This document shows positions 6,851 to 60,755 of a stretch of 64,000 bases of DNA, one piece after another. A program made the translations under genes and the position numbers. Under the pieces are notes generated by a model. The model saw only the letters and a list, made by a program, of their open reading frames with translations, did not search any database and was not told where the DNA came from. The DNA comes from an uncultured Candidatus Saccharibacteria bacterium. GTDB taxonomy: Bacteria > Patescibacteriota > Saccharimonadia > Saccharimonadales > 2-12-FULL-41-12. The stretch's first letter is position 1, and every line of letters starts with the position of its first letter. Where the stretch lies: contig CAMTYB010000001.1 in the NCBI GenBank assembly GCA_947085855.1, positions 213,788-277,787 on the forward strand, read 5' to 3'.

Positions 6851-7804
6851 CTATTTGACGTAGGCTCGTTCTGGTACTCGCACGTCAATATACTCGGCTG
6901 GCTTTGGACCTTTCTGCTCTGCATAGTCGCGGGCTGCAATAAATGTGCCGAAGCTTTTGCGAGCATCTTCGTAGATACTAAACTTAGCATAATAGACAAC
7001 ACCGTCAAAGCGGGTGAACAGCTCCCCTCCCCCTGCGCGCAGTTCACTGACCTGGATGCTGAGTTTGGCGGCGGCAGCTTGGTGCTGAATTTCATTAATA
7101 AAGGCCACCTGCGTACTGGTGAGAGCCTGCTTGCCAACATCAATGCGAGCTTGTGACTCATCAACCACACGAGGTAGATCATCTCGCTTGGGGCTATCCT
7201 GCAACTGACTAAGGTTAACAAGAGCTTTACCAGTGCTATTCAGAAGAAAATCACCTTGGGACGTAGCCAAAACCAAGCTTGGTCGATTCAGCGTAGCGGT
7301 AACCGTTGCTCGGTTAGTAAATAGAGGTGTCGTGACACGCACACTGCTTAGCTCCGGAAATTTATTCTGTAGCTCTGCGGTGATTTTTTGACGGTCGAGC
7401 GTTAGCTTACTATAGCCCAAGAAGCCTTGTTGATTACTGAGTTCGGCGACGGCTTTTTCATATTCGGCAACTGGTCGTACAGCAGCATCTCCACCGGCAA
7501 TAACTACCTTTGGTGCGGCCGATAAGTGAGCCATTACAATAGCTAAAAGTACCCCACCGAGCACCCAAGCAGATAGGATACCTTTCTGGAGCCAGGTACG
7601 ACTAAACTGACGAGCTGTTGGACCTAAGCCAGCTGCCTCAGTATTACGACTTTGTTGCGGCCGTACGTCTGGTGATCTATTAGAACTATACTGAAACGCA
7701 TTCTGCTTTTGACGCATAATCTGTGGCGACCGACCGACCGGTGCTTTCGGTCGTCGCATTACCGTGCGAGCAAGTTGCTTTGTTAAGCGGCTCAGTCGAC
7801 TCAT
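6851..7804 (-). CDS. ftsQ: Cell division protein FtsQ/DivIB-like (POTRA)
   Basis: Basic cytoplasmic N-terminus, a single TM (GILSAWVLGGVLLAIVMAHL), then a POTRA-like segment. It occupies the last position of the dcw cluster, after murG, with a 4-nt overlap. Confidence 0.65.
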   Translation of the reverse strand: MSRLSRLTKQLARTVMRRPKAPVGRSPQIMRQKQNAFQYSSNRSPDVRPQQSRNTEAAGLGPTARQFSRTWLQKGILSAWVLGGVLLAIVMAHLSAAPKVVIAGGDAAVRPVAEYEKAVAELSNQQGFLGYSKLTLDRQKITAELQNKFPELSSVRVTTPLFTNRATVTATLNRPSLVLATSQGDFLLNSTGKALVNLSQLQDSPKRDDLPRVVDESQARIDVGKQALTSTQVAFINEIQHQAAAAKLSIQVSELRAGGGELFTRFDGVVYYAKFSIYEDARKSFGTFIAARDYAEQKGPKPAEYIDVRVPERAYVK

Positions 7805-8958: not shown

Positions 8959-10252
8959 AATCCGGCTCCTTCTTGTTCATTTTGACGTTCCGTATTGGTT
9001 CAAAAGTCGTAAAGCGTGAAATATGAAAGACTACGCCCAGGGCTGCCATCACAAACAGAATACTCGTGCCACCATAGCTAATAAATGGTAACGTAATGCC
9101 TTTCAGCGGCAAAAGTCCGATCATGGCGCCAATATTAATAATGGCCTGTGTGCTTAACCACGCTAAGACGCCTATGACAAACAGTCGCGCAAAGGGATCG
9201 GCTGTCCGTTCAATAATGCGCTTGAAGCGCGAAAACAGTAGTAGATACAGTCCCAGCACGATTGACACGCCCAAGAAGCCAAACTTTTCGGCCAGAATAG
9301 CAAAAATTGAGTCGTTAGCCGCTTCCGGTAAATAGCCATAGGCTTGGACGCCATTGCCAAGACCAAGGCCAAATACCCCACCGCTACCAACAGCAATCAA
9401 CGCTTGGCACGACTGATAGCCGCTGGCTTGGCAGTCGCTCTGTGGGTTCAAAAAGGTAGCCACGCGATCGCGTCGATAACTACTAGTTGAGATTGCCAAC
9501 AACGTGCCGACGGCTACGATTGCCCCTATCAAGGCAAGTCGTTTCATTGGCAAACCAGCCGCAAATGCCATAACAACGATAATGGCAATCATGACACCGG
9601 TGGAACCGAGGTCACTCTGGACTTTCGCTACTACCACACCTATAACAGCCATGACGATAAGGAGTGGCCGAAGTGTTTTGAGATTATTCCCCATTTCCCC
9701 ACTACGCATGCGCTCCGTCAAAAACGCGGCTAACCAGATAATCAGTGCGAATTTGATAATTTCAGCTACTTGGAACGACAAACCGCCAATCTGAATCCAA
9801 CGCGAGGCGCCGTTTATTTCTTCTCCGACGATAAGAACCGCCACGCAACTGATGGCCGCTAAACCCAACAAGATGTACTGAGCTTTTCGTAGCGTCCTGA
9901 ATGGCACAATGCTAAAAACGGCGAAAGCCGCTAGGCCCAGACTGATTGCAATCGATTGCTTAATCACGAAATAGTTAGTGCCAACACCTTTGGTGGCAGC
10001 TAAACCAGGGCTAATGGCATACACGACCACAAGACCGACTGCTGATAGTAACAATGAAATAATGAGTAGGCTGTAATCTGGTCGGTGCTTACGAGATACA
10101 GCTGCACTACCACTCGACAGGCCACTGCTAGACGAGCGAGATCGCTCATGGGCCGAACTATCACGTCGTGGCGCTCTGCCCCCGCCTCTGGCCGGACTGT
10201 TCTGGCTACCGGGGTTGGGCGAAAATAAGTTTGCTACTATCCTGCTAAACAT
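8891..10252 (-). CDS. ftsW: SEDS-family peptidoglycan polymerase FtsW
   Basis: Polytopic membrane protein with SEDS motifs (SDLGST, LPEAANDSIFA, GITLPFISYGGTS). dcw position between mraY and murG. Confidence 0.85.
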   Translation of the reverse strand: MFSRIVANLFSPNPGSQNSPARGGGRAPRRDSSAHERSRSSSSGLSSGSAAVSRKHRPDYSLLIISLLLSAVGLVVVYAISPGLAATKGVGTNYFVIKQSIAISLGLAAFAVFSIVPFRTLRKAQYILLGLAAISCVAVLIVGEEINGASRWIQIGGLSFQVAEIIKFALIIWLAAFLTERMRSGEMGNNLKTLRPLLIVMAVIGVVVAKVQSDLGSTGVMIAIIVVMAFAAGLPMKRLALIGAIVAVGTLLAISTSSYRRDRVATFLNPQSDCQASGYQSCQALIAVGSGGVFGLGLGNGVQAYGYLPEAANDSIFAILAEKFGFLGVSIVLGLYLLLFSRFKRIIERTADPFARLFVIGVLAWLSTQAIINIGAMIGLLPLKGITLPFISYGGTSILFVMAALGVVFHISRFTTFEPIRNVKMNKKEPDYDNRPLRRRVGRPYYAASSRRV

Positions 10253-18972: not shown

Positions 18973-19752
18973 CTAGTTTTTAGGTGGCAGTGGAATCAAC
19001 ACGCTGGTTTGAGCTTTGTATTGCTTCCAACCGGGCTTCAGCTCTAAACGGCGTTCACTTGGTGGCACACCAGATATGCGCATGATTAAGTACGTAATAG
19101 TCAACGCTCCAATAACACCCAGCCAACTACCTGTGGCAGCATACGAGATAATGAACATCGCCCACCACATCACAATCTCGCCAAAATAGTTCGGGTGTCG
19201 TGAATAGCGCCACAGACCAGTTTTCATCAATTTACCGCGATTGGAGGCTTTTTGCGTAAACAGCGCAAGCTGTCGATCTGCAATCGCCTGCGTTGCCAAA
19301 CCTGCCAGCCACACAAGACAGCCTATTGTCACCATGACCGCGTTGGCCGATTGAGCCTCGGTGTAGACAAGAAGCAATGGCGTAGAAATGATGATTACCA
19401 GCAGCGCCTGGACGATATAAACACGAAAATATGTGTTCACTGCCACATCGCCCCGCCACTTTTTGCGCAACTCAACATACCGAGCATCTTCGTTAACAGC
19501 CCGCAACCAGCGCCGACCAATATGTAATGCGATTCGTATTCCCCACAGTAGTATCAGAGCCGTTACAAGCCACTGAGTACCATTTTTACTAGACCACGCG
19601 AACCCAAATAGCGCTACGATAACAAAGGCTGGTCCCCACGCTACATCAATTAGATCGTACCGTTTGCGGCGGCGAGCGTACAGAAAAACTAAGCTCATAA
19701 AAATCAGGACATCAATGAAAGCAGCCAGGGCAACAATTATCAACTCAGTCAT
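18973..19752 (-). CDS. DUF1295 / steroid 5-alpha-reductase-like membrane protein
   Basis: Polytopic protein carrying the signature GLWRYSRHPNYFGEIVMWW. Confidence 0.7.
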   Translation of the reverse strand: MTELIIVALAAFIDVLIFMSLVFLYARRRKRYDLIDVAWGPAFVIVALFGFAWSSKNGTQWLVTALILLWGIRIALHIGRRWLRAVNEDARYVELRKKWRGDVAVNTYFRVYIVQALLVIIISTPLLLVYTEAQSANAVMVTIGCLVWLAGLATQAIADRQLALFTQKASNRGKLMKTGLWRYSRHPNYFGEIVMWWAMFIISYAATGSWLGVIGALTITYLIMRISGVPPSERRLELKPGWKQYKAQTSVLIPLPPKN

Positions 19753-29975: not shown

Positions 29976-31526
29976 TCAGACAACCTTGCGGATTTCGGGC
30001 GAGGCGATGTAGAGCGTTGCGGCGTCGGCCTTGATGAGTCCCTGGATGCGCGCGCTGCTCGACGCCGTGGTGCTCGCCTTCGTCGGGGTCCGCATCACGC
30101 CCTGCGGGATCGCAGACAGGAACGACGACGTGTTGGAAACCCAGAACGTCGCGGCGTAGTTAGTGCCGCCAGGCTCGATGTACTGAAGACGCAACTCCTT
30201 CACGTCCGTCCAGGTGCCCTCACCCTTGTACTCGCAACGGGCGTAGCCATGCTCACCAATGGCGAACTGGCTGGCCCGACCGAACCGGAACCAGCGAAGC
30301 TCGCAGTCCGCGCCACTACTAATGACGATCTTCCACCAGTAACCCGGCTTGCCGTCCGCGCGCGCCTCCAATGACGAGACTACAGTTCCGGTGCCGGACA
30401 CGATGTCGAGTGTATAGCCGATCGGGATGTCGCCGCTGATCGAGCCGGGGTCGCTGTTCGTGCCTCCTGCCGTCGAATGGAAGGGGCTGTACTCCACGAT
30501 GTTCTGCAAGTCCGCGCGACTGTGAAGTAGCTCGTTGACGCTGCTGACACGCGGCTCAAGCAGCGTTGCAATGATCGTCCCGATGGCGCGCGCGCCGCTC
30601 TTCGAAGGATGCAGGCTGTCGTACGTCATGCCGGTGCGTGGGGCGCCGTCGTAGTCCGCAAGGCTGCCGAAGGCGTCTACGAGCAGCATCCCATCCGTAG
30701 CCGCGACGTACTCCCTGATCCACTGATTAACGCCGTACAGAACGGCCTTCTGGCCGGTGGTCAGAGTGATGTCGGAGCGAGGCAGAATCGTGAATGCGAG
30801 GACGACCATTCCGACGGCGAGCGCCTGCTCGTACATGTATTCCAGGTCGCCGGTGATGTCCGCGATGGTGCGGTCGTCCGCCAGGTCGTTCGTCCCGCCG
30901 AAGATGCATCCGTAAGCCGCGCCTGACGCGAGGAACGGCGTGAGGCGGGCGCGAATCTCCTGCGTGTTCTCGCTTACCACGCCATCGATGTACGTCACGT
31001 CGAGACGGTCATAGAGCAGGTAGTTTGCCCACGTGAGGTAGCCGTCGTCGGGCTGCGTGTTACCGACCGCGTTACCGGACGGTTCGCAGGCCGCGGTGAT
31101 CGAGTCACCAATCGCGGCAACGGTGTTACGAGGGGCGGCAGCACCGAGCACCTGAGTAGTGCTTGCCACCACAAGCGGAGTTCCAGTATGTGCGTCTATA
31201 GCTTTTCCTGCATCGTTTGAGTCTGTGGATTTGGTAACTACTGTTGTGGGTATTTGCGCAGGAGTCAGGGTAGTACCTGTGAGACTGGCTACACCGTCGC
31301 TAACACCTTTTTGGGACGCAGGGATGGCATTGTCAGCAGCATCCAGACTAGTCTGGATTGCACCAGAGGTTTTAGCTCGAGTGACTGCATTGTCTTGTAG
31401 CTGGTTGGCGCCAACTACGTTGTCTTTAAGAGTACCAGTGTTAGTGTGAGATTGACTGAGGAAGTCGTTGAGGATGTCCCCCCAGGATCCTTGGTCACTG
31501 CCTGGAGTTGGGAGCCTGCTCGCCAT
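29976..31526 (-). CDS. SGNH/GDSL-family hydrolase with N-terminal fibre-like segment and C-terminal beta-rich domain
   Basis: SGNH blocks GDSIT (I), GGTND (III) and DSLHPS (V). N-terminal motif LPTPGSDQGSWGDILNDFL. GAGGAG SD upstream. The 3' ~1.2 kb is ~67% GC against ~46% in the flanks. Confidence 0.8.
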   Translation of the reverse strand: MASRLPTPGSDQGSWGDILNDFLSQSHTNTGTLKDNVVGANQLQDNAVTRAKTSGAIQTSLDAADNAIPASQKGVSDGVASLTGTTLTPAQIPTTVVTKSTDSNDAGKAIDAHTGTPLVVASTTQVLGAAAPRNTVAAIGDSITAACEPSGNAVGNTQPDDGYLTWANYLLYDRLDVTYIDGVVSENTQEIRARLTPFLASGAAYGCIFGGTNDLADDRTIADITGDLEYMYEQALAVGMVVLAFTILPRSDITLTTGQKAVLYGVNQWIREYVAATDGMLLVDAFGSLADYDGAPRTGMTYDSLHPSKSGARAIGTIIATLLEPRVSSVNELLHSRADLQNIVEYSPFHSTAGGTNSDPGSISGDIPIGYTLDIVSGTGTVVSSLEARADGKPGYWWKIVISSGADCELRWFRFGRASQFAIGEHGYARCEYKGEGTWTDVKELRLQYIEPGGTNYAATFWVSNTSSFLSAIPQGVMRTPTKASTTASSSARIQGLIKADAATLYIASPEIRKVV

Positions 31527-31620
31527 ACCCTACACGCTCCTCGCATTAGTACGTAAAAGCTCAATACCAGAGTGAAGATATACTCTTCGGGTTTTTATTT
31601 TATCCCTCATACTGGTTAAG

Positions 31621-31649
31621 ATTATGTGGTAGCGGTTATCTGGTGTCAA
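31621..31649 (-). promoter_or_regulatory. Sigma70-type promoter TTGACA-17-CATAAT upstream of the SGNH hydrolase gene
   Basis: Reverse-strand hexamers at 31649-31644 and 31626-31621. Confidence 0.55.
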
Positions 31650-31707
31650 GATTAAACTACGGAAGACAAAGCTGAATTGTAACCACAACGATTCCGCTAT
31701 GGACGCC

Positions 31708-33315
31708 TCAGACGAGGGTTTTGATGAAGCCGTCAAACATTGGATGCGGGCGGTTTGGACGTGACTTGAATTCTGGATGAAATTGACTGGCCAAGAAGAA
31801 TGGATGGTCAGTTCCCTCAATCACCTCTACGAGATTGTTGTCCGGATTGATGCCAGTTGGCTTGATGCCCCAACTCTCGTACTGATCTCGATAAGAGTTA
31901 TTACACTCGTAGCGGTGGCGGTGGCGTTCGACGATTTCTGGCTCACCATAAACCTTTGCAGCAAGGCTGCCGGCTTCTAGACTACAGTTGTAATTGCCAA
32001 GGCGCATGGTACCACCAGTGTTCTCTTTACCCTTCTGGCCTTCCATAGTGTGGATGACTTGATTCTTACCCTTGGCATCAAGTTCAGTAGTTGTCGCGTC
32101 AGTTACGCCGTTATTGCGAGCTGCTGCTATGACGGCCATCTGCAAACCAAGGCACAAACCAAGATACGGTAGTTTCTCTTTCAGAGCATATTGAGCGGCA
32201 GTGATTTTGCCTTCAAGGCCGCGGGTGCCAAAGCCGCCAGGCACCACTATACCGTCGCAACCCTTTAGTACCGTAGCAATATCTGCATTCGGTGCTTCAA
32301 TTTCCTCAGCTTCAATCCATTTAATGGTCAGGTTGGTATTGTTCCAAAAAGCCGCGCTACGTAGGGCTTCAAATACAGACATGTACGTATCGGTGTTATC
32401 CATGTACTTAGCGACCACACCGACGGTAACCTCTTTATCAAAAGAAGTAGTCGCCTTCTTAACCACTTCGCGCCAATCACTCAGATCAGGCTTGGTGCTG
32501 CGTTCGCTCACGCCGAGCCTGTCGGCGATAACAGTGCCGAGGCCAGAGTCTTCGAGGGTCAGCGGGACTTCGTAGATACTTTTAGCATTTGGTAGCAAGG
32601 CGATTGCTCTTGAATCCACGCCACTAAACAAGCTGAGCTTCTGGATAACACTTTCGGACGCTTGCTGCTCGCTGCGTGCCACCAAAACATCAGGAACGAT
32701 ACCGAAGCCGCGCAGCTCGCGCACTGCATTCTGAGCCGGCTTAGTCTTCACTTCCTGGCTCGCACCAAGGAATGGCAAATAGACCACATGTACAAACATG
32801 CAGTGCTCACGACCGGTGTTAAAAGCAAATTCGCGAATCGCCTCGATAAAGCTGAGACCTTCATAATCGCCGACGGTACCACCGACTTCGATAATATGAA
32901 CGTCAAAACCTTCACCGGCGCGCTTAATTTCTTCCTGCATGGCCTGCGTAACATGCGGAATGTACTGCACGGTTTTGCCGAGATATTTACCGGCTCGCTC
33001 ATCAGCTAGCACCTTAGCCAAGACGCGACCGCTCATCAATGAGCTCGCCTGCGTCAGTTCTTCATCCAAAAAGCGCTCATAATGCCCGAGGTCTAGGTCG
33101 GTCTCGGCACCGTCTCTCGTCACAAAGCACTCGCCATGCTCAGCCGGATTAAGCGTACCGGCATCAGTATTGAGGTACGGGTCACATTTTTGGAGGTTAA
33201 CAGTTAGTCCGCGGGCTTTTAGCAGACGACCAATTGAGGCGGCCGTGATACCCTTGCCAACTCCTGACAAGACACCGCCGGTAACAAAAATATACTTAGT
33301 CTGCTGTTTTCCCAC
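31708..33315 (-). CDS. pyrG: CTP synthase
   Basis: TKYIFVTGGVLSGVGKG and the glutaminase triad region GLCLGLQ...HRHRYE. GTG 33315 is preferred, with AGAGGGAG SD 8 nt upstream. The ORF track extends to 33324. Confidence 0.95.
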   Translation of the reverse strand: MGKQQTKYIFVTGGVLSGVGKGITAASIGRLLKARGLTVNLQKCDPYLNTDAGTLNPAEHGECFVTRDGAETDLDLGHYERFLDEELTQASSLMSGRVLAKVLADERAGKYLGKTVQYIPHVTQAMQEEIKRAGEGFDVHIIEVGGTVGDYEGLSFIEAIREFAFNTGREHCMFVHVVYLPFLGASQEVKTKPAQNAVRELRGFGIVPDVLVARSEQQASESVIQKLSLFSGVDSRAIALLPNAKSIYEVPLTLEDSGLGTVIADRLGVSERSTKPDLSDWREVVKKATTSFDKEVTVGVVAKYMDNTDTYMSVFEALRSAAFWNNTNLTIKWIEAEEIEAPNADIATVLKGCDGIVVPGGFGTRGLEGKITAAQYALKEKLPYLGLCLGLQMAVIAAARNNGVTDATTTELDAKGKNQVIHTMEGQKGKENTGGTMRLGNYNCSLEAGSLAAKVYGEPEIVERHRHRYECNNSYRDQYESWGIKPTGINPDNNLVEVIEGTDHPFFLASQFHPEFKSRPNRPHPMFDGFIKTLV

Positions 33316-46429: not shown

Positions 46430-47125
46430 CTATTGTAACAGCTGGGCAGCAGCTGTAATGGCAGCAGTTTCGGCGCGAAGCGTAAATGGACTGAGGTGAA
46501 TATGCGGTATTTTATTCGCTTCGAAGAAGCTTTTTTCGTTATCACTCCAGCCGCCCTCGGGGCCTATTAGCAGGCCGAACTTGGTTTGCTGTTTGGTTGG
46601 AGGTTGTGGGCTGGAAACACCTTGCTGGCAGATAAATAAGGGTAGCTCACCGAGGTATTCCGGCAAGGCTGTTTCCAGGCGCACCGGCTCGCGCACAGTC
46701 GGAATAGTGCCCCGACCGCACTGTTCGCTCGCCTCGCGCACAATCTTCCGTGCTCGATCAATATTAAAATTATCACGAATCGACCGCTCACTCAGCAGCG
46801 GCACAAAATTACTCACCCCCAACTCGGTGCATTTTTGCAAAATCAGATCATTATTATCTTTTTTCAATAAACTCCAAAACAGGTAGACATGCTTTTCCGG
46901 TATCTGTTGCTTGAGCTCAGTTACCATCTCTAGATGGGCCTCAGATCGCGTAATTTCGGTTATTGTATAGAGTCGCTCTGTCTGAGCGCCATCAAACAAA
47001 ATTACCTGCTGGCCAACCCGAAAGCGCAGCACTTTGTTCCATTGCCACAATAGGGCTTCGTCACGCAGCCAAAAGTCTTTCTTGAGCTTAATGGCCTCGC
47101 CGGTATAAAATCGATGAACTCGCAT
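46430..47125 (-). CDS. rsmE: 16S rRNA (uracil1498-N3)-methyltransferase RsmE
   Basis: MRVHRFY start and SPOUT C-terminus LLIGPEGGWSDNE...LRAETA. Confidence 0.8.
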   Translation of the reverse strand: MRVHRFYTGEAIKLKKDFWLRDEALLWQWNKVLRFRVGQQVILFDGAQTERLYTITEITRSEAHLEMVTELKQQIPEKHVYLFWSLLKKDNNDLILQKCTELGVSNFVPLLSERSIRDNFNIDRARKIVREASEQCGRGTIPTVREPVRLETALPEYLGELPLFICQQGVSSPQPPTKQQTKFGLLIGPEGGWSDNEKSFFEANKIPHIHLSPFTLRAETAAITAAAQLLQ

Positions 47126-47172
47126 ATGCCTATTGTACACTGCCCTGCTGTGACTTTGATTACTCAATCTTA

Positions 47173-47245: not shown

Positions 47246-47665
47246 ATGTCAGCACCAGAACGTGACGTAACCCTACACTACCCGCAACGCAGTCGACACA
47301 ATCGAGTCGATGCAGTATGGAATATTGCTATGGGTACTGGAATCGTAGCCGCTATAGTAGCAGGCGCTCTCGCGACTATGAAAACTAGCTCGCCACAGTG
47401 TGAAGGCACACAACGAGTTGCCCTAGGTGCAGGCGACGTACCTCAGCTGGTAGCTCAGGAGCGCATCGATGTTACGAGCGGTTATGTAGACATCCAAGGA
47501 ATGGTCAACAGTGGTCGCAATCGACCACCAGCTGCTTTCCTCAATCCTTTTTACGACGAAGACGCTGAAATTCGAGTTGTCGAAGGTCCGGCTCACCAAA
47601 ACTCTAATATCTCCGGCTGGCAGCCTGGCGATATCGTCGTAATGCCTCAGACCTGCAAAGTCTAG
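47246..47665 (+). CDS. Hypothetical membrane-anchored protein, 139 aa
   Basis: GAGGAG SD and a consensus promoter upstream. Single TM (WNIAMGTGIVAAIVAGALATM). No family recognised. Confidence 0.5.
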   Translation: MSAPERDVTLHYPQRSRHNRVDAVWNIAMGTGIVAAIVAGALATMKTSSPQCEGTQRVALGAGDVPQLVAQERIDVTSGYVDIQGMVNSGRNRPPAAFLNPFYDEDAEIRVVEGPAHQNSNISGWQPGDIVVMPQTCKV

Positions 47666-48942
47666 CGACGTCTCAAAATAGCCAGCGCTTCGATGTGCGG
47701 CGTGCGCGGAAAGAAGTTATAGCCGCTAATCCGCTCTATCTTGTAGGTGTCCTGTAGTTTTTCAAGGTCGCGCGCCAGCGTACTCGGATTACAGCTCAGA
47801 TACACTATGTGACCGGGGCAAATGCCTTCAGTCGCTTCAATAACTTTGCTGTGTAAACCGGCCCGTGGCGGGTCAAAAATGACTGTTGAGTCATCATCGC
47901 AGGTTATATTTTCTGTGGCTGACTCACTCGAAGCATGTACCACCTTTACATCTGTAAATTCACTAGCTGCAGCATTGATTTTAGCCATTTCAACCGAATG
48001 CGGATCGAGCTCTACCAGCCACGGCGCCTGTGCACTCACAGTTAAGCCAATACTCCCCACGCCGGCATACATGTCAGTCACAAAATTATTACCCACCGCT
48101 GCTTTAATTTCTGTCAGGGCTTTTTGGTAGATCTCTAAATTAATTTGGAAAAACGATAGCACATCGTACTGAATTACCTGGCCAAGCAGTTCATCTTGAA
48201 GTGTAACTTCACCAAACTCATACAATTTCCGTGTTGCCACACTTGCCGGACTCTTAGGGTTAGAGAAATACACTACCACTCCCTTGCAGACATCTCCTAG
48301 CTCGGCAATTTGCAGGAGTTTTTCGTTGCGCGTGAACAAAGCAGCCACACATTCACCGGCCTGATTACATCTAACAATTAAACTTTTTAGGTCGCCGGCG
48401 CGGATACCGGCCTGATTTAAATTGGCGCAAATCGCGTTGGCTGTCCTGTCGATTTCTGGCCGCGCAATACTGCTGCCGGTCACAATCTGTTTGCGATGCG
48501 TACCCCTGTTGTACAGCGCTAAATGCAAGCCATCATCATCACCCCAAAACGAATACTCCATCTTGTTGCGATACTGCCATGGCTCATTCGGCGCGTACAA
48601 TTCAATTGGGCCATCGTAGTCTACGTCAGCCCGCTGTAGAGTCTCAATCAAAATGTCGCGCTTGTAGCGATTTTCGGCCTCATAGCTCATCATTTGCCAC
48701 GGACTGGTGCTTAAATACAGATCATCGCGCGGGATAGCCCGCTTGGTTGAGGCTTCAATAATGTCAGTGGCAATACCTTCTATATAAGAGGACCTACTCT
48801 TCTGCGACATAAAAGAAACTACCTCGCCCGGTAAGGTGTTCCAGACGAGGACTTTTTTGCCATCAGGCAAGGCACCAAGGCCTTGCCCACCGTGGACTAA
48901 TTTATCAATACGGACGTTGTCGTACTGCTTCGGCTTCGACAT
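47662..48942 (-). CDS. rlmD: 23S rRNA (uracil-5)-methyltransferase, RlmD/RumA family
   Basis: TRAM-like N-terminus (VRIDKLVHGGQGLG), SAM motif DMYAGVGSIGL, FDPPRAGL, and catalytic YLSCNPSTLARD. Confidence 0.8.
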   Translation of the reverse strand: MSKPKQYDNVRIDKLVHGGQGLGALPDGKKVLVWNTLPGEVVSFMSQKSRSSYIEGIATDIIEASTKRAIPRDDLYLSTSPWQMMSYEAENRYKRDILIETLQRADVDYDGPIELYAPNEPWQYRNKMEYSFWGDDDGLHLALYNRGTHRKQIVTGSSIARPEIDRTANAICANLNQAGIRAGDLKSLIVRCNQAGECVAALFTRNEKLLQIAELGDVCKGVVVYFSNPKSPASVATRKLYEFGEVTLQDELLGQVIQYDVLSFFQINLEIYQKALTEIKAAVGNNFVTDMYAGVGSIGLTVSAQAPWLVELDPHSVEMAKINAAASEFTDVKVVHASSESATENITCDDDSTVIFDPPRAGLHSKVIEATEGICPGHIVYLSCNPSTLARDLEKLQDTYKIERISGYNFFPRTPHIEALAILRRR

Positions 48943-48949
48943 CGTTACT

Positions 48950-49861
48950 TTACTGGAGCGCGGTCAAGATAATCAATACAACCAAGAATTTGACGAGTAA
49001 GTCGGCTCGCAAATAGGCTTCTTCGATACCAGTATAGTCGCGGCCAGCAGCACCGGCTTTCAGGACGTTCGCAGCTGCAATCGCCATCACTACATAACCT
49101 AATACGATCACACCGATGACAGCATAGACGTGCCAACCAAAGCGTTCCATACCCCAGATGCTCGTACCAGCCAATGAGCCAAGAATTGGAGCAAACGCAG
49201 TCAAACCAGCCACCCAAGCAAAAATGTAGGCCAACCAGCGTGGCTGACGAGCCTTAGCATTATCGCGCTCCGCAACCCAACTTAGAACCGCAGCCAAGAG
49301 CATAGCCGCTGCCGAAAGTTTTAGTGTCGAAATATCATTAACACCGACGAGTAGATTCAAGAATACTACTGTTAGCGCAGCTGACAAACCAAAAGACATC
49401 CAACGGAAACCCGAGATACGGCCGGCCAAAGTTGTCTCGTAACGTGCTCGTAATTTAGTTGCCAAAAAGAGTGACAATACTGCACTCACTAATAGCGAAG
49501 CTACCAGCACATACTTGGGATCAATATTGTACAAAACTTCGTGTGCTGTACCCAAAACCACCTTGTCCTGCCCCGCAAATTCATCACGAGCTGAAATCGT
49601 CAGCGTAATCGCGCTCTGCGCCATAGACACAAAGCCTATAACTACACCTGCAAATAAGGTGTACACAACCGCGCTGCTTAAATGCAGGCTACGGATTCGC
49701 TCTAACGGTGTAAGTGGAGCTTTGCGACTTGATGATGTAGTAGTCTTAACAGCAGTCGTTTTGGCTGGTTTGGTAACTTTTGTAGTTTTAGTTTTCTTGG
49801 TAACCTTTGCCGCCTTAGAAGCTGACGCCGGCTTTTTTGATTTAGAAGTTGTTGTTGCCAT
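48950..49861 (-). CDS. Heliorhodopsin-like 7TM protein with Lys/Thr-rich N-terminal tail
   Basis: Seven hydrophobic segments. The stretches GFRWMSFGLSAAL...GVNDIS...LSWVAER and YTGIEEAYLRADLLVKFLVV align without gaps to my recollection of heliorhodopsin 48C12 (FRWVEYSLSSS...GIADIV...FGWLQEK; YLRGERAYIVLSLVAKSAL), including the Schiff-base Lys. ATG 49861 is preferred over GTG 49879. Confidence 0.6.
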   Translation of the reverse strand: MATTTSKSKKPASASKAAKVTKKTKTTKVTKPAKTTAVKTTTSSSRKAPLTPLERIRSLHLSSAVVYTLFAGVVIGFVSMAQSAITLTISARDEFAGQDKVVLGTAHEVLYNIDPKYVLVASLLVSAVLSLFLATKLRARYETTLAGRISGFRWMSFGLSAALTVVFLNLLVGVNDISTLKLSAAAMLLAAVLSWVAERDNAKARQPRWLAYIFAWVAGLTAFAPILGSLAGTSIWGMERFGWHVYAVIGVIVLGYVVMAIAAANVLKAGAAGRDYTGIEEAYLRADLLVKFLVVLIILTALQ

Positions 49862-49867
49862 GGCGCT

Positions 49868-49876
49868 ATGATAGCA
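49868..49876 (-). promoter_or_regulatory. Extended -10 TGCTATCAT, 6 nt before the heliorhodopsin-like ATG
   Basis: Reverse strand: gtgTGCTATCATagcgccATG. Confidence 0.4.
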
Positions 49877-49905
49877 CACTCTGTTGGCTTTGGGGTGAGT
49901 TTTAC

Positions 49906-50343
49906 TTACAGCGCCTTAATATAGGTATTAGCGTCACAAATAGCCAGCGTGCCATCCCGATTCTTACCCCGAACTTCCACCGACGCACCGCGCTGAACTT
50001 TACCAATTACACCCTCATCGTTCTGATTATAAATCTCGCAACTTGACTCGCCCGACGCCAACCGCACTTCATACATCTTATTCCGATCACCCTGCACCAT
50101 ATAAATACCCTCGCCATCAACCTGCATCTTCGACAGATCGACCGATGTCACAGTGCCACGAACAGTCATATAGTCACCACCCGCTTGAGACGCTGACGTT
50201 GGTGCTGGCTGCCCATTTTGCCGCGCATAGCTACCGGTTTTTGCCGGATCATCTTCTCGCTGTACATATATAAATGTACCGACCGCTACTACTGCCGTAA
50301 TAATACTTACGATGATGAGATTGCGGTTGCCGAAGTACTTCAT
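49906..50343 (-). CDS. Hypothetical N-terminally anchored exported protein, 145 aa
   Basis: N-terminal TM (LIIVSIITAVVAVGTFIYV) followed by a beta-rich domain. No family recognised. Confidence 0.5.
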   Translation of the reverse strand: MKYFGNRNLIIVSIITAVVAVGTFIYVQREDDPAKTGSYARQNGQPAPTSASQAGGDYMTVRGTVTSVDLSKMQVDGEGIYMVQGDRNKMYEVRLASGESSCEIYNQNDEGVIGKVQRGASVEVRGKNRDGTLAICDANTYIKAL

Positions 50344-50413
50344 AACCCCAGTATAGCAACCAATAATTAAATTCCTATTCCAAGCAACAACCCTGTTATA
50401 AGCATAAATACTA

Positions 50414-50442
50414 TTGACAAAACGTGTGTTTTTTGCTATAAT
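50414..50442 (+). promoter_or_regulatory. Perfect-consensus promoter TTGACA-17-TATAAT
   Basis: Hexamers at 50414-50419 and 50437-50442. The 44-nt A-rich leader contains AAAGGA. Confidence 0.7.
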
Positions 50443-50492
50443 GCATTACTAGAAATACCCAAAAACAAAACTATTCAAAGGATTTCAAAATT

Positions 50493-51020
50493 ATGCCTCG
50501 ACCATTCCCATTCAATCAAGATGATCGACCAAGCCAGCCAGCTGACCTCAGCGCTGCAATCGACCACTTCTCTGGCGATAAGGAACTAAAAGAAGAAACC
50601 GGCCGGCTGCTTGCCCAAGGCGACGAAGTACTCGCAGCCGATCGACAAGCTCGTGGAGCAGATGCTCCCCGCGCTTCACGCAACATTGGCCGCAAAGCCC
50701 TCGTTGGCGTGGCCGCCGCTGCTGCCATAACATTTCCCACCTCTCGCGACACACTAGTAGATACCACTAAAGCAATCGTGGGCAGCAACTCTGTTGAAGA
50801 AACCGATCAACTCTCTCAGCAAATAAATGAACGAAGCGACGTGCTTCGCCAAGCTATAGCTTCAGGCGAAATTCGCCTACCACAACAAACAGACCAATCA
50901 CCAGAGGAAGACCCCTACCAAGCGGTTCACCAAGCTAACGAGCTTGCTACTGTTGGCGAACAAATGCGACACGGCCAAGACATCCCTGCCGTGCAGGTCG
51001 CCGATCAAACTCGTCAATAA
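50493..51020 (+). CDS. Hypothetical protein with central TM, 175 aa
   Basis: A perfect-consensus promoter lies 51 nt upstream. Central hydrophobic segment ALVGVAAAAAITF. No family recognised. Confidence 0.5.
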   Translation: MPRPFPFNQDDRPSQPADLSAAIDHFSGDKELKEETGRLLAQGDEVLAADRQARGADAPRASRNIGRKALVGVAAAAAITFPTSRDTLVDTTKAIVGSNSVEETDQLSQQINERSDVLRQAIASGEIRLPQQTDQSPEEDPYQAVHQANELATVGEQMRHGQDIPAVQVADQTRQ

Positions 51021-51023
51021 TAG

Positions 51024-52520
51024 TTATAGTTTTACGTCGGGGTAAATTTTGCGGGTGGTTTCGTCGATTTCAGAGCGAAGTTGCGGGAACGGCACTCCTT
51101 CGCGGGCGGTAACACCTTCAAAAATCCAGAAAACACGCTCTGAATAGCCCCAGCCACAGGCTGGCGGCATACCGTATTCGAGCATTTCGACGTAGTCGAT
51201 GTCGAGCATCATGGCTTCGTCATCACCAGCTTCGCGCATCTTTTGTTGTTCGACAAAGCGTTCTAGCTGATCAATTGGATCATTGAGCTCCGAAAAGCCA
51301 TTGCCAAGCTCACTGCCAGCAATGACTGGTTGGAAGCGCTGGACGGTTTCAGGGCGATCTGGATTAGCCTTGGCGAGCGGACTAATAAAGAGCGGTGTGT
51401 TGACTAACCAAACCGGACCAGCCACGTCTTTGCGGATGTTTTTCCAGAGCTTGTCGATACCACGGGCTTTGTTGTCGGCCTTTTCAACTTCAAGTTTGTT
51501 GTCTTTGAGCGCTTTCTTGACCTGTTCGAGAGTACAGTCAAAGACATCAATGTCGTAATGCTTCTTGATAACTTCGGCGTAGTCCCACTCTTCCCAGTCT
51601 TTGCTGAGATCAACGTCAAATTTGCCAAGCTTGAACTGGAGAGTACCAAAAGTAGATTCGATAACATAGCGATACATTTGAGTCATCATTTCCATACCCT
51701 GACGCCAATCGGCGTAGGCCCAGTACCATTCCATGGCAACGTGTTCCGGCAGATGCTCGTCGGAGTAGTTTTCGTTACGGAAGCGCGGACCAACGTCATA
51801 AACGCGCTCAAAACCAGCGCCCAGCAAGCGCTTAAGTGGCAATTCGTGGCTAATACGCAGGTAAAAATCCTGATCAAGCGCATCCATGTGGGTTACGAAT
51901 GGATTGGCATCGGCACCACCAGTAGTGTGCTCAAGGACAGGTATGTTTATCTCTGTAAAACCAGCTTCGTCCAAGAACTGACGGGTAGCCCGCCAAAAGC
52001 GTGAACGGCGGTAAAAGCGCATCCTGACATCATCGTTAACGTTCATATCAACGTAGCGGCGGCGCAGACGCTCTTCTTTGTCGGTCAATTCAGTTGGAGT
52101 TGGCCGCAGAGCCTTAGTCAGCAGACGTAGCGTTTCAACCTGTACTGAGATTTCGCCGGTTTGAGTCTTGATAACCGGGCCGGTTACCTCGACAAAGTCG
52201 CCCGTGTCCAGTAGAGCGATGTCCTTGATAGCGAGTTCGCTGTTGCTGTAATCGGCTTCTTTGTCAGCAGTTTTCCAGAAGGCCTGCAAGTCGCCACCCC
52301 AGTCGCGGACAACTATAAAAGCAATTTTGCCAAATTTGCGGATAGATTTAACCTGGCCAGCGATGGTGACTGGTTTGTTTTCTAGCTCTTCGAAGTTTGT
52401 GCGAATGTAGCCGTTGCTGTGTGTGCGATGTGACTTGGCTGGGTACGGGTTAACGCCCAGCGCTTTCAGTTCTTCGAGCTTGCGCAGACGCTCATTACGA
52501 TAATCTTGTAGGGTTGCCAT
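51024..52520 (-). CDS. lysS: Lysine--tRNA ligase (class II)
   Basis: N-terminal OB anticodon-binding domain. Class II motifs FRNE(NYSDEH), GELGNGFSELNDP, GWGYS. ATG 52520 is preferred over TTG 52526. Confidence 0.92.
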   Translation of the reverse strand: MATLQDYRNERLRKLEELKALGVNPYPAKSHRTHSNGYIRTNFEELENKPVTIAGQVKSIRKFGKIAFIVVRDWGGDLQAFWKTADKEADYSNSELAIKDIALLDTGDFVEVTGPVIKTQTGEISVQVETLRLLTKALRPTPTELTDKEERLRRRYVDMNVNDDVRMRFYRRSRFWRATRQFLDEAGFTEINIPVLEHTTGGADANPFVTHMDALDQDFYLRISHELPLKRLLGAGFERVYDVGPRFRNENYSDEHLPEHVAMEWYWAYADWRQGMEMMTQMYRYVIESTFGTLQFKLGKFDVDLSKDWEEWDYAEVIKKHYDIDVFDCTLEQVKKALKDNKLEVEKADNKARGIDKLWKNIRKDVAGPVWLVNTPLFISPLAKANPDRPETVQRFQPVIAGSELGNGFSELNDPIDQLERFVEQQKMREAGDDEAMMLDIDYVEMLEYGMPPACGWGYSERVFWIFEGVTAREGVPFPQLRSEIDETTRKIYPDVKL

Positions 52521-52528
52521 TGCCAAGC

Positions 52529-54555: not shown

Positions 54556-56376
54556 TCATACTCGAAAAAATTCTTCATCAGCAGTAGGCGTTTGGATATG
54601 GTCGGCTGACGACTCATCATGACGTCGAAGCCGAATGCCTCGCTTACCAAACCCAACCGGCTGTGCGTAGCTATGATTAAATGATGGCGCGTTACGGTGA
54701 CTAACGTTGCCACGGCCTTTGTTCGTAACACCCATACTTGTGTATGCACCACCATCACAAATTTGTAGCATCGAACACATGGCTGCAAAACCGTTTATTT
54801 CCTCATCGGATACCCGAGACCTTATATATTCTCTCAGTGTGTCTTTGGCTAGCTTATACATGGCTGCCTTGGCTGATTGACCAGCCCCACGAATATTGAT
54901 ATCAAAAGCCAAATCAGCACCTTCGCCAATTATTGCCAGTATCATTTTTCTATCGCGAACCGGCAAACCTACCTCTTTCAGAAAACCGTTGGCGTATATT
55001 TGATTAAAGTCCTTTTGATTGTGAATTTCACCTTTTATAGCTGCCGCTGGTTTGCCGATATCGTGCGCTAAAATAGCCAGCCTCATGGGGGCAAGCATTT
55101 GCACCGGCAAGTTATCTGCAAAGTTTTCATCAAAGTTTTGGAGTACTGTTTCTGTATGCTCAGCTAAGCTAAACTTCTCCCAATTGCCAGTATCTTCTTT
55201 AAAAATGTGCCCAAAACTAGTAAGTTGACTTGCTAGCTCTACAATTTTTTCTGGCTTCACGTGAGGGTCATCCTGGATTGCCCTAAGAAGCGGCAAACGC
55301 GTATCCGTACCTTCCTGCTCACGTGTTTTTTCTGTAATTTCATCGAGTCGTGCAGCAAATTGACCAACCTGTCGCCACGTCGACTGGCGCTGAGCTTTTG
55401 CTTGTTCTTCAGTTGCCACTTTTTCAAGATCAAAGAGTGATATTGCAATCATCTTTCGATTGATAGTTGCAGAATAAATAGGCTGCTGAACACCGACAAT
55501 ACCTGCTTCTCGAAAGTATCGTTGCACGTATTCCATATTAAGCGGTAGCTCGACCTGCCCTTCATTGACAAGATTAATAACGTCAGTATGAATGTCTCTT
55601 TGCGAACCTAGTAAACGGCCGGCCGCATATGACGGTGCAATCTGCATTACCTGGCGTGCATTGTAGGCACTAGCAAGCTGGAGCGCAACGCTTTCGTCGA
55701 TGCCAGCTTCTTCTGCATACAATGACACCTCTTCTTGCTTGATTCTCGTGGGCAGACGTCGATTGATCACTTCTTTAAAAGGCTTAAAGGCATGTCGATC
55801 GTCGAAACCGAGTGGAGATCCTTCAGATACGCCTATGGCTAACTTATTTAGAGCACCTTTATATTTTTCTAAAGTTACCTCGTCCAATGTTTGAACATCA
55901 AAATTGAGATCAATGACAACTGCATCCGGATTGACCGACACAATATCATGGATTTCCCCTTGGTATTTACGTGCGATAGACTGCCACAAATCGTCCTTTT
56001 CGACTTCAGACATCGGCCATTTAGACGCGTTTGCTTCTCTATCGCGCATTGCTTCAATATATTCTGGATATATAAATTCTCTGCCGCGACTCCTAGCAAA
56101 TTCTAGGGCGTTATCACGCGAGCCTGTGTACAGTGTTGGGCGCGTATTAACGTTGAAATTTCCATTATCGTTGCGGCCATTCGCAAATACCGGGTTTACG
56201 GTCCATGGCTCATTAGCATGATTCTCGCCAACGCGACCATGAAATGTCTCCAGTTCAGACAATGGAGCCAGAAGACCTATCTCTTTAAGTGTCTCAATCG
56301 CCCTGAATCTTTCGGCATCTTCGAGACTTCTAGAATGTTCGGCGCGGGTCTGTAGCTGTTCTGACATAGTATGCAT
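54556..56376 (-). CDS. Large hypothetical protein (606 aa) with C-terminal HD-domain
   Basis: HD signature LAEHTETV...RLAILAHDIGKP...D. The N-terminal ~400 aa are unrecognised. No signal peptide or TM. Confidence 0.55.
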   Translation of the reverse strand: MHTMSEQLQTRAEHSRSLEDAERFRAIETLKEIGLLAPLSELETFHGRVGENHANEPWTVNPVFANGRNDNGNFNVNTRPTLYTGSRDNALEFARSRGREFIYPEYIEAMRDREANASKWPMSEVEKDDLWQSIARKYQGEIHDIVSVNPDAVVIDLNFDVQTLDEVTLEKYKGALNKLAIGVSEGSPLGFDDRHAFKPFKEVINRRLPTRIKQEEVSLYAEEAGIDESVALQLASAYNARQVMQIAPSYAAGRLLGSQRDIHTDVINLVNEGQVELPLNMEYVQRYFREAGIVGVQQPIYSATINRKMIAISLFDLEKVATEEQAKAQRQSTWRQVGQFAARLDEITEKTREQEGTDTRLPLLRAIQDDPHVKPEKIVELASQLTSFGHIFKEDTGNWEKFSLAEHTETVLQNFDENFADNLPVQMLAPMRLAILAHDIGKPAAAIKGEIHNQKDFNQIYANGFLKEVGLPVRDRKMILAIIGEGADLAFDINIRGAGQSAKAAMYKLAKDTLREYIRSRVSDEEINGFAAMCSMLQICDGGAYTSMGVTNKGRGNVSHRNAPSFNHSYAQPVGFGKRGIRLRRHDESSADHIQTPTADEEFFRV

Positions 56377-59298: not shown

Positions 59299-60645
59299 CT
59301 ACTGCTCAGACTGGACGTATTTTTTAGTTTCGTTGTCAACAAATCTTTTGATACGTTTTTCGGCACGACCAGAAATTCTTCCTTCTGCTGCTGCAGTAGT
59401 TGCTTGTACATACATGCCGTCAAGCAAAGACCGCACAAACTCAGGATGAGTCTGTACTTTTGGAATATCTGGATTAGCAACAGCTATGTTTAATTTAGTT
59501 GCCATGCTTTTTATTTCATTGCTGAGTTGTTTTCTATCTGATCGCCGAACAACGCGCCACGCCAATTCTTCTGATTTATCTGGCACGGTTCCGTGTACTG
59601 ACATTCTTATAAGTAGCTCTTTCTTGAGCGCCTCAGACGGCGACAAAGAACCTGGATACGCGCCAGCAGTCAGTATTTCACCAACTAAAAGGCGATCCCG
59701 CCCAAGGTCTGGATCGCCTACCTTCAAATTGACACGATAAAGAATTTGACGGGCTACTTCCGGCAATGCTTTATCGAAAGCTTCTCTAGATTTTATTGAG
59801 AGATCGTGCTGCAAAGTCTCATCTAAGGAAATGATGCCCTGTCGCTGAAGAACTAAACCCAATTCAGGAACTCTTTCAAACTCGCCAGATTTCAGGAAAT
59901 GCTCTGTTATAGCCTGTGGGCCAACCAAACATTTTACGCCCAGGCTATCGACTATGCGGGGCCCACCTGGATCAAACAAGCGCGCAGGATACTCAGACAT
60001 ATCTACGCCACGACCCGTAACTGAGTCGTTATCCCATTTTGGTTTTACCGGCCGAGCAAAGCGCAGGAAGTCTCCTGTCTTGCTGTCGGCAAACCCCACT
60101 TCGTCGGCGTCTATGGCAGACAGATCTGCTTCCATTCTTAGCTTATCTAACTTTGCGCCTGCGACCACGAAGGATCTACTATTGCCACTTACCAATACGC
60201 TCCTCTGCCTATCCTCGCCATTTTCCATACTCTGGATCACCTGAACACCTTGGCTTGCTGCCCAGTCAGGATTACTACCATTCAGCACCTGGTTGATAAC
60301 CATCCAGGCAATTGCCTTGCTGCCAAGTAGCCAAATCGTGCCGCCATCAGCAGCGATATATTCTCGCTTGTATGGAATGTCGAGGCGATGGGCAGCTTCT
60401 TGGCGAGCCAGTTTTTTGTTCCCCAAAAGATCTGCTTCCAGCAAAGTCTCCTTGTCGAAAGTGTCAATAATTTCTGGATTGAATTCGTCGTCGCCAGCAA
60501 TTATTGCCTCGAGGTGTTTCCGTTCACTCACCCCCATATCAGTAAGTTCCGCTTGCTTGCTTGCAATTCCGTTCTCGCCTCCATACCGACGAGTTAGAAA
60601 CTCAAAATCCACACCCATTTCTTCAAATACTGTGGTAGTGCTCAT
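59299..60645 (-). CDS. Large hypothetical protein (~448 aa)
   Basis: Long ORF between tsf and frr. AAGGAG lies 11 nt upstream of ATG 60645 (the ORF track extends to 60711). No motif, signal peptide or TM recognised. Confidence 0.5.
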   Translation of the reverse strand: MSTTTVFEEMGVDFEFLTRRYGGENGIASKQAELTDMGVSERKHLEAIIAGDDEFNPEIIDTFDKETLLEADLLGNKKLARQEAAHRLDIPYKREYIAADGGTIWLLGSKAIAWMVINQVLNGSNPDWAASQGVQVIQSMENGEDRQRSVLVSGNSRSFVVAGAKLDKLRMEADLSAIDADEVGFADSKTGDFLRFARPVKPKWDNDSVTGRGVDMSEYPARLFDPGGPRIVDSLGVKCLVGPQAITEHFLKSGEFERVPELGLVLQRQGIISLDETLQHDLSIKSREAFDKALPEVARQILYRVNLKVGDPDLGRDRLLVGEILTAGAYPGSLSPSEALKKELLIRMSVHGTVPDKSEELAWRVVRRSDRKQLSNEIKSMATKLNIAVANPDIPKVQTHPEFVRSLLDGMYVQATTAAAEGRISGRAEKRIKRFVDNETKKYVQSEQ

Positions 60646-60755
60646 TTTCCAGAAAACTCCTTGTTTTTGAATAGTACCATATACCATAAACCTTGTAAAA
60701 AACCATGACAAGTAAGCCCATTGGACGGATTGTTGGGCTAAATTTAAGAAGCAGT

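Follow-up and report, generated by a model that had tools for sequence, protein, structure and literature searches.

The closest described systems to the gene reported here are the heliorhodopsins 48C12 and TaHeR, members of a family whose molecular function is mostly unknown in the literature. The Schiff base of 48C12 is hydrogen-bonded directly to Glu107 and Ser237, which stand in place of Asp85 and Asp212 of bacteriorhodopsin (bR), respectively, and these two residues together with His23 and His80 are described as highly conserved in all heliorhodopsins (Kovalev et al., PMC7049168). Two censuses of the family (Bulzu 2021 and Chiriac 2022; PMC8612252, PMC9166423), one of them covering bacteria that belong to the candidate phyla radiation (CPR), kept only proteins with an SxxxK motif in transmembrane helix 7 (TM7) as bona fide heliorhodopsins. 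The gene described here lies on the minus strand of a 64,000-nucleotide (nt) stretch of DNA from a Candidatus Saccharibacteria bacterium (contig CAMTYB010000001.1), hereafter referred to as the window, and encodes a heliorhodopsin-family protein of a non-canonical DxxxK type, in which the carboxylate of TM3 is absent and a carboxylate is present on TM7. This arrangement recurs in a clade of Saccharibacteria proteins, and we propose that the TM7 Asp is the likely counter-ion of the retinal Schiff base.

The heliorhodopsin-family gene spans positions 48950..49861 (-) and encodes 303 amino acids (aa) followed by a stop codon. The initial annotation delimited it as the open reading frame (ORF) at 48950-49879, which is present on the minus strand in the ORF list of the window. 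The reading frame is real, but we place the start at the ATG at 49861 instead of the GTG at 49879, that is, 18 nt or six codons inside the listed ORF, because the homologs all begin with MATT and an identical database protein (P0001) is 303 aa long. A hidden Markov model (HMM) search, suggested in the initial annotation as a check on its description of the product as a heliorhodopsin-like seven-transmembrane (7TM) protein, gives a match to the Pfam family Heliorhodopsin (PF18761) of 73.5 bits (E = 2e-20, profile positions 13-234 of 242), well above the curated cut-off of 26.7 bits, and the Pfam scan gives no match to the type-1 rhodopsin family Bac_rhodopsin (PF01036) at E ≤ 0.1. PF18761 is also the sole annotation for all 32 close homologs of the window protein that we found. 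A search with the window protein as a single sequence detects TaHeR (6is6) at E = 1.8e-9, and a profile of the 33-sequence clade detects both TaHeR (E = 1.5e-22) and 48C12 (6su3; E = 6e-14). The AlphaFold2 model built on the 33-sequence alignment consists of seven long helices and a disordered N-terminus, with a mean predicted local distance difference test (pLDDT) score of 79.5 and a predicted template modeling (pTM) score of 0.74. In a Foldseek comparison of this model with the PDB, the best 10 matches are all structures of 48C12 or TaHeR (template modeling score of 0.65-0.78, normalized to target length), with ~17% identity to the canonical heliorhodopsins; these are followed by far weaker matches to halorhodopsins (E ~2e-3, 16-18% identity) and other type-1 rhodopsins. 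These results establish the family membership and the fold, and the description as a heliorhodopsin-like 7TM protein is upheld. A tally on the model helices predicts ~21 Lys and Arg residues on the cytoplasmic side (14 in the N-terminal tail and ~7 in the inner loops) versus three Lys and Arg and seven Asp and Glu residues outside, which fits the inverted topology of heliorhodopsins with a predicted cytoplasmic N-terminus. Purifying selection is established by ratios of nonsynonymous to synonymous substitution rates (dN/dS) of 0.044 and 0.067 in comparisons of the gene with two close relatives, with values of 0.03-0.05 for the 7TM core.

We mapped the residues of the Schiff-base region by HMM alignment to 48C12 and TaHeR, with the window protein numbered from the ATG at 49861 and with the 48C12 sequence, which we confirmed to be identical to PDB entries 6su3 and 9ljj over residues 1-256, as the numbering reference. 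The TM3 and TM7 segments align to 48C12 without gaps and are anchored by invariant residues, as the initial annotation had noticed for two long stretches. On TM3, FRWVEYS of 48C12 lies opposite FRWMSFG of the window protein, with R104-W105-V106-E107 corresponding to R153-W154-M155-S156, and on TM7, SLVAK lies opposite DLLVK, with E230/E280, Y233/Y283, and K241/K291 as anchors. Lys291 (codon AAA, 48989..48991 (-)), the predicted retinal Schiff-base lysine, is the counterpart of Lys241 of 48C12, and the lysine at this position is kept in 32 of the 33 close homologs. Ser156 (codon TCT, 49394..49396 (-)) takes the place of Glu107, the counter-ion in 48C12 (bR Asp85 position), and the proposed counter-ion, Asp287 (codon GAC, 49001..49003 (-)), precedes the lysine by four residues and is the counterpart of Ser237 (bR Asp212 position). 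The alignment recommended in the initial annotation, to 48C12 and TaHeR, therefore places no Glu at the counter-ion site and keeps the Lys, and its reading of a retained retinal Lys, a TM3 Glu replaced by Ser, and an Asp four residues before the Lys is confirmed.

The same alignment establishes the mapping of the surrounding residues. Ser76, Tyr92, Arg104, Trp105, Ser111, Asp127, Glu149, and Glu230 of 48C12 are retained as Ser126, Tyr141, Arg153, Trp154, Ser160, Asp176, Glu198, and Glu280, and His80, Asn101, and Tyr108 are replaced by Ser130, Ser150, and Phe157. The bR Asp96 position (Leu118 in 48C12) is Phe167 in the window protein, with no carboxylate. TM1 of 48C12 failed to align to the clade HMM, and we give the equivalent of His23 as Tyr67 or Ala71 because two alternative TM1 alignments differ by one helical turn: His23 lies opposite Ala71 in the profile/TaHeR alignment and opposite Tyr67 in a MAFFT alignment bridged by canonical-type relatives, which also places Asn16 of 48C12 opposite His60 of the window protein. 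The window protein has a His in neither position, and the earlier suggestion that both Schiff-base His residues of 48C12 are replaced thus holds under either alignment. With respect to the motifs used to delineate the family, the window protein contains the TM7 Schiff-base Lys (K291 = K241) and the TM3 Arg (R153 = R104) used by Chazan et al.; it contains DLLVK in place of the SxxxK motif on TM7, Ser156 in place of the TM3 Glu counter-ion (E107), an S-S-F motif on TM3 in place of the ESL motif of canonical heliorhodopsins, and no two-His Schiff-base cavity (H23, H80). Judged by its sequence, the window protein belongs to the heliorhodopsin homology family but falls outside the canonical motif definition.

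An exhaustive profile search of 1.84 billion representative sequences identified 873 relatives at E ≤ 1e-3, of which 146 reach E ≤ 1e-30. We aligned the best 150 relatives together with the 33 close homologs and scored positions 107, 237, and 241 (48C12 numbering) in 173 relatives. Two large groups, both with Lys at 241, stand out: the x-D-K group of 57 relatives, in which position 237 is Asp or Glu and position 107 is non-acidic, and the acid-107 group of 65 relatives, in which position 107 is Asp or Glu and position 237 is Asn, Ser, or Gly. A survey of residue pairs at the two positions had been proposed in the initial annotation; among the 133 Lys-bearing relatives, an acid is found at 107 or at 237 and rarely at both (two relatives) or at neither (nine relatives), such that exactly one of the two carboxylates is present in 122 of the 133 (Fisher p = 3e-25, with shared ancestry ignored). 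The other 40 of the 173 relatives (~23%) lack the Lys and have Arg (9), Leu (6), Ala (5), Gln (5), Thr (4), Val (4), or other residues at this position. Either acid is kept in 16 of the 40 Lys-less relatives versus 124 of the 133 Lys-bearing relatives (p = 6e-12, again without regard to shared ancestry).

Our neighbor-joining tree places 53 of the 57 x-D-K sequences in one Saccharibacteria clade together with the window protein, and this clade is 93-96% pure; the x-D-K signature marks a near-monophyletic Saccharibacteria clade. The exceptions within the clade, P0018 (Lys to Met) and P0015 (Asp to Gly), look like secondary losses. Clade-wide conservation is established for position 237, which is Asp in 55 and Glu in two of the 57 x-D-K sequences. 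Position 107 is occupied by Ala (13), Leu (9), Tyr (8), Ile (7), Ser (5), Phe (5), and Val (4), among others, and Ser156 itself is not conserved across the clade. Because position 107 is variable while the Asp at 237 is nearly fixed, we read the evolutionary event as the loss of an acid from TM3 and the gain of an acid on TM7. The reciprocal E/S to S/D swap put forward in the initial annotation consequently stands as regards the lost and the gained acid and not as a literal exchange of Glu and Ser, given that position 107 is variable and non-acidic across the clade. Other changes specific to the x-D-K clade are a Ser at the Asn101 position (51 of the 57), a Gly at the Ser109 position, and the loss of Pro172 of helix E with a new Pro three residues further on. 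The hallmarks of the retinal pocket are present in the x-D-K sequences (Trp105 in 57, Trp173 in 38, Phe206 in 35, and Gln213 in 35 of the 57) at frequencies approximating those of the sister group.

This sister group, the 65 acid-107 relatives, is also non-canonical: position 107 is Asp rather than Glu, position 237 is Asn, Ser, or Gly, and the His80 position is usually occupied by Pro. We found no description of an Asp-107 group in the literature covered. P0054 (related locus L007, 324-1256) has Asn at 237, outside the SxxxK motif, and is encoded at the same locus type as the window protein, with the heliorhodopsin gene next to an RlmD-family gene. Related locus L016 (4001-5651) encodes a Y-D-K heliorhodopsin that keeps His80 and lies outside the main clade, and its TM7 Asp may be of independent origin. 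P0076 (related locus L014, 5001-5957) has S-Q-A at positions 107/237/241 and occupies the same syntenic slot between LysS (lysyl-tRNA synthetase) and RlmD; the heliorhodopsin locus in this case keeps an "opsin" that is predicted to be unable to form a Schiff base.

We posit that Asp287 is the likely Schiff-base counter-ion because the Schiff base of 48C12 bonds Glu107 and Ser237 and because Ser237 is the equivalent of bR Asp212; Asp287 is aligned to Ser237 without gaps, and therefore an Asp at this position would touch the Schiff base. The clade alignment contains no other conserved acid near the Schiff base; Glu198 and Glu280, the invariant acids that are left, are partners of Arg104. From the sequence we infer retinal binding, a counter-ion role for Asp287, and a sensory function, and we consider it reasonably probable that the window protein binds retinal and serves as a sensory heliorhodopsin whose counter-ion has been relocated to Asp287. 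In this model, a vertically inherited Saccharibacteria heliorhodopsin that spans the membrane with seven helices and has its N-terminus in the cytoplasm would bind retinal, drawn from the host or the environment, via Lys291. On TM3, the carboxylate that is Glu107 in 48C12 (bR Asp85 position) would have been lost; on TM7, four residues ahead of the lysine and at the site of Ser237 (bR Asp212), Asp287 would have been gained as a new carboxylate; and most of the polar, His-lined Schiff-base cavity would have been remodeled, with the changes H80→S, N101→S, Y108→F, and either H23→Y or H23→A. Given that a natural heliorhodopsin without both His residues still binds retinal, with less M intermediate, we expect a working pigment with changed proton transfer, and changes would be anticipated in color, counter-ion pKa, and M-state chemistry. 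The protein would be expected to act as a slow-cycling light sensor or regulator, as other heliorhodopsins.

Several observations weigh against this model. The presumed geometry of Asp287 and Lys291 derives solely from homology, and the window protein departs from the clade majority at pocket positions Phe223, Tyr256, and Ala263. The Fisher tests ignore phylogeny, and the pattern of carboxylates may reflect one or a few evolutionary events. Orthologs without the Lys are found at the same locus in other Saccharibacteria (L014), which indicates that the gene can persist without covalent retinal. Finally, no Blh, RPE65, Crt, or type-1 rhodopsin family is present among the 39 window ORFs of at least 200 aa, in accord with the initial annotation, which saw no retinal or carotenoid biosynthesis gene in the window. 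In favor of the model, rhodopsin-bearing Saccharibacteria without retinal synthesis have been described in which the type-1 rhodopsins take up retinal from outside in a matter of seconds (Jaffe et al., PMC9296517).

The Lys-less relatives (40/173, ~23% of the related representatives), among them the S-Q-A ortholog at the same syntenic locus (L014), the K→M change in clade member P0018, and the absence of retinal-synthesis genes both from the window and from the rhodopsin-bearing Saccharibacteria of Jaffe et al. (PMC9296517) would be compatible with a chromophore-independent scaffold in vivo. Such a protein would act as a membrane anchor or regulator via its cytoplasmic loops and polybasic tail, with the Lys and Asp kept for structure or for occasional retinal loading. 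We consider this unlikely, given that the clade keeps both the Lys and the Asp four positions ahead of it nearly without exception and under strong purifying selection, that the loss of the Lys accompanies the loss of the carboxylate, as expected if both work at a Schiff base, and that the pocket aromatics are conserved. It is extremely improbable that the gene is decaying or mis-called and that its odd residues are noise: the sole point in favor of decay is the distance from canonical heliorhodopsins (~17% identity), the ORF is intact, the same signature is found in more than 50 relatives, and the locus is conserved across genomes. Based on the dN/dS of 0.04-0.07 and this shared signature, we ruled out that the window gene is a pseudogene.

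Other possibilities accept a retinal pigment and assign it a different chemistry or role. Halorhodopsins have a Thr/Ser/Asp arrangement at the sites considered here, and the window protein resembles it: its residue at the TM3 position is small and neutral (Ser156), Ser160 lies one turn from it, and the TM7 Asp is kept (Asp287). In an anion-dependent, halorhodopsin-like design, a halide or other anion beside the Schiff base would be part of the counter-ion, and the protein would bind or transport anions; the E107A and E107Q mutants of 48C12 do bind anions (PMC7049168), and halorhodopsins are the next-best structural matches after heliorhodopsins. However, these Foldseek matches reflect the shared fold only (E ~2e-3, 16-18% identity), and position 107 is unconserved and often bulky (Leu 9, Tyr 8, Ile 7, and Phe 5 of 57), which argues against a conserved anion site and leads us to regard an anion-dependent design as improbable. 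Schizorhodopsins are inward proton pumps with a single TM7 Asp counter-ion and a non-carboxylate residue at the bR Asp85 position, and the window protein shares with them both the non-carboxylate at this position and the Asp at the bR Asp212 position, with which schizorhodopsin Asp179/180 is equated in the literature. A light-driven or light-gated proton transporter, which in the inverted orientation and with the schizorhodopsin-like direction would move protons outward, would also have a precedent in the one viral heliorhodopsin that transports protons (PMC9448325). We are very doubtful of such a transporter because the window protein has no carboxylate at the bR Asp96 position (Phe167) and no conserved polar chain across the extracellular half, and because the prokaryotic heliorhodopsins tested to date are all non-transporting (PMC7049168). 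A further, speculative role is suggested by a long polybasic, nucleic-acid-binding-like tail and by the fixed location of the gene immediately upstream of an rRNA methyltransferase gene (RlmD or, in its absence, RsmE), both of which are described below: the whole Saccharibacteria heliorhodopsin lineage might be a light-responsive regulator or membrane tether for ribosome/rRNA maturation, with the TM7-Asp clade as a re-tuned switch. We give this role little credence, and an outward proton transporter that uses the single TM7 Asp in the inverted orientation is less likely than it.

The N-terminal tail comprises codons 1-51 (49709..49861 (-)) and is predicted, based on composition and pLDDT, to be disordered and cytoplasmic. 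Its sequence, MATTTSKSKKPASASKAAKVTKKTKTTKVTKPAKTTAVKTTTSSSRKAPLT, is dominated by Lys, Thr, Ala, and Ser (13 Lys, 1 Arg, 14 Thr, 8 Ala, and 7 Ser) and contains no Asp or Glu, which bears out the polybasic Lys/Thr tail of the initial annotation. The pLDDT of the AlphaFold model is below 50 over the greater part of the tail (alignment residues 6-44), and the dN/dS of the tail is 0.20-0.25, a constraint that is weaker than that of the 7TM core and yet real. Similar tails are present in 48 of 60 x-D-K, 54 of 69 acid-107, and 29 of 45 Lys-less relatives, including canonical H/N/E/S/K forms, in counts for which the search profile included the tail and so favored tailed matches; the tail thus appears to be lineage-wide and not specific to the DxxxK clade. 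The heliorhodopsin tail is the sole strongly Lys-rich segment among the window ORFs, and we rejected a genome-wide habit of Lys-rich tails, given that no other window ORF has such a segment. Because the tail is predicted to be cytoplasmic and is strongly basic, it could bind nucleic acid, an anionic lipid, or a partner protein.

Directly downstream of the heliorhodopsin gene is a gene (47662..48942 (-)) encoding an RNA m5U methyltransferase of the RlmD/RumA/TrmA family (PF05958, tRNA_U5-meth_tr; 87.5 bits). Its TRAM match is weak (16.2 bits, below the cut-off), and the homologs in L007 and L014 carry both domains; we classify the protein as a TRAM plus m5U-methyltransferase of the RlmD/RumA/TrmA family, the substrate of which may be 23S U1939 or another site. 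The heliorhodopsin stop codon (TAA, 48950-48952) is separated from the ATG of the RlmD-family gene at 48942 by a 7-nt spacer, AGTAACG (48943..48949 (-)), and our promoter/terminator scan detected no terminator-like site between the two genes and no convincing minus-strand promoter directly upstream of the heliorhodopsin gene. Upstream is a 145-aa ORF (49906..50343 (-)) with no significant Pfam match, possibly the first gene of the transcription unit, which is kept only in the closest relatives (L006, L018, and L019) and absent from L001-L005. The conserved syntenic block also includes lysyl-tRNA synthetase (51024..52526 (-); tblastn identity of 61-64% in L001-L004 and L014) and, in its downstream part, an RsmE-type 16S rRNA methyltransferase (46430..47167 (-); tblastn identity of 52-70% in related loci), the homologs of which in related loci carry the Pfam domain Methyltrans_RNA.

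The gene order in five x-D-K genomes is GreA, LysS, a variable slot, heliorhodopsin, RlmD, a second variable position, RsmE, a PD-(D/E)XK nuclease, and SerS. The same order, with heliorhodopsin next to RlmD, is also found with other Schiff-base states, namely D-N-K (L007, with a spacer of ~6 nt), E-S-K (L010/L011), and the Lys-less S-Q-A (L014); the contigs encoding P0104 (D-D-K) and P0134 are too short for a comparison of neighbors. One HAD gene is located between the two genes in the canonical-type relative L008, and in L016/L017 RlmD is absent from the locus and RsmE follows 7 nt after the heliorhodopsin gene. Given this distribution, the heliorhodopsin-RlmD pairing is an old gene order retained from an ancestor, in a small genome of high synteny, and is neither obligatory nor clade-specific. 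With regard to the operon proposed in the initial annotation, the 7-nt gap and the lack of a terminator-like site make co-transcription of the two genes in the window likely; a functional link, which the adjacency does not support given that it is lineage-wide and broken in L016, would be possible by likeness to the AbHeR-glutamine synthetase system discussed below.

The slot between LysS and the heliorhodopsin gene (49906-51020 in the window) is variable and contains, as in the closest relatives, the 145-aa ORF and an opposite-strand 175-aa ORF. The latter (50493-51020 (+)) has no family match and is convergent to LysS; just upstream of it, 50414-50442 (+) matches the sigma-70 consensus perfectly (TTGACA and TATAAT at a spacing of 17 nt, plus an upstream TG). 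Occupants of the slot in related loci are MsrA in L014, an FMN reductase and YdjM in L010, an esterase and a HAD hydrolase in L016, and also an ornithine/DAP decarboxylase in L018; those with redox-related functions are reminiscent of the link to oxidative stress that has been proposed for heliorhodopsins. Between GreA and the heliorhodopsin gene, locus L010 encodes a class I lysyl-tRNA synthetase (PF01921; 2252-3784) instead of the class II enzyme found there in the window and in L014, which looks like a non-orthologous replacement in place.

The related loci come from environmental-sample assemblies of Saccharibacteria/Saccharimonadia, with several contigs of 0.7-1.2 Mb, and the 64-kb window has a housekeeping content only (DprA, TopA, FtsW, MraY, PBP, RsmH, PyrG, SecA, several aminoacyl-tRNA synthetases, RF1/RF2, S2, and Tsf), with nearly all genes on the minus strand. 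Scans of the window for tRNA genes and for Rfam families at the gathering threshold yielded none. The G+C content is 57% at 30001-32000 and 45-51% elsewhere; this rise coincides with a 516-aa ORF with a GDSL-lipase domain (29976-31526) and may represent a low-complexity region or a foreign segment. A DUF1295 gene is located at 18973-19752, 30 kb from the heliorhodopsin gene, and no linkage is implied; Chazan et al. report DUF1295 as a recurrent neighbor of heliorhodopsins. No Pfam family matches the large ORFs 54556-56376 (606 aa), 59299-60711 (470 aa), and 6851-7804 (317 aa) at E ≤ 1e-5, and Arg-rich N-terminal segments are found in the 317-aa ORF and in FtsW (8891-10252).

Compared with 48C12 and TaHeR, the window protein has a homologous 7TM fold, the predicted N-in topology, and the TM7 retinal Lys, together with Arg104/Trp105, Ser76, Ser111, Tyr92, Asp127, Glu149, and Glu230. 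It differs from them in the replacement of Glu107 by Ser, at a position that is variable in the clade, and of Ser237 by Asp, in the replacement of His23, His80, Asn101, and Tyr108 of the cavity, in the loss of Pro172 from helix E and the presence of another Pro three residues further along, and in the addition of a polybasic N-terminal tail of ~50 aa. We found no description of DxxxK or S237D heliorhodopsins in the searchable literature, which does not extend to most subscription papers. The SxxxK filter should exclude the clade because its proteins have DxxxK, and censuses based on this motif would miss the x-D-K clade as well as the D-N-K and Lys-less relatives; the diversity of heliorhodopsins in CPR bacteria is probably underestimated. 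A different counter-ion geometry may also give a shifted color or fluorescence that is useful for optogenetic tools.

With respect to genomic context, the nearest parallel is AbHeR and glutamine synthetase, in which a heliorhodopsin is encoded with a soluble enzyme in one operon and cytoplasmic positive charges of AbHeR mediate partner binding (Cho et al. 2022, PMC9529153). Here, the candidate partner is instead an RNA m5U methyltransferase known from gene adjacency, within a long syntenic block that is broken in one relative. With respect to the Schiff base, the DxxxK motif of helix 7 (D287-x3-K291) is a likeness to type-1, bR-like rhodopsins in mechanism and not in membership: the window protein has no PF01036 match, the opposite predicted orientation, no carboxylate at the Asp85 position, and similarity at the level of the fold only. 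Anion channelrhodopsins have a carboxylate on TM7 only, and the window protein is reminiscent of these proteins, schizorhodopsins, and halorhodopsins in its neutral bR Asp85 position and its Asp212-position carboxylate as the sole predicted protein counter-ion, although it is of a different family and orientation. Unlike schizorhodopsins, it lacks the FSE-type TM3 motif and the Glu at the bR Asp96 position (Phe167 at the Leu118 position), and its clade has no conserved anion-site residue at position 107. We hypothesize that the x-D-K clade represents a natural swap experiment, which bears on the divergence of heliorhodopsins from type-1 rhodopsins and on the purpose of the Glu107 water cavity, and which would indicate that the heliorhodopsin family tolerates a counter-ion at the helix-7 position used by type-1 rhodopsins.

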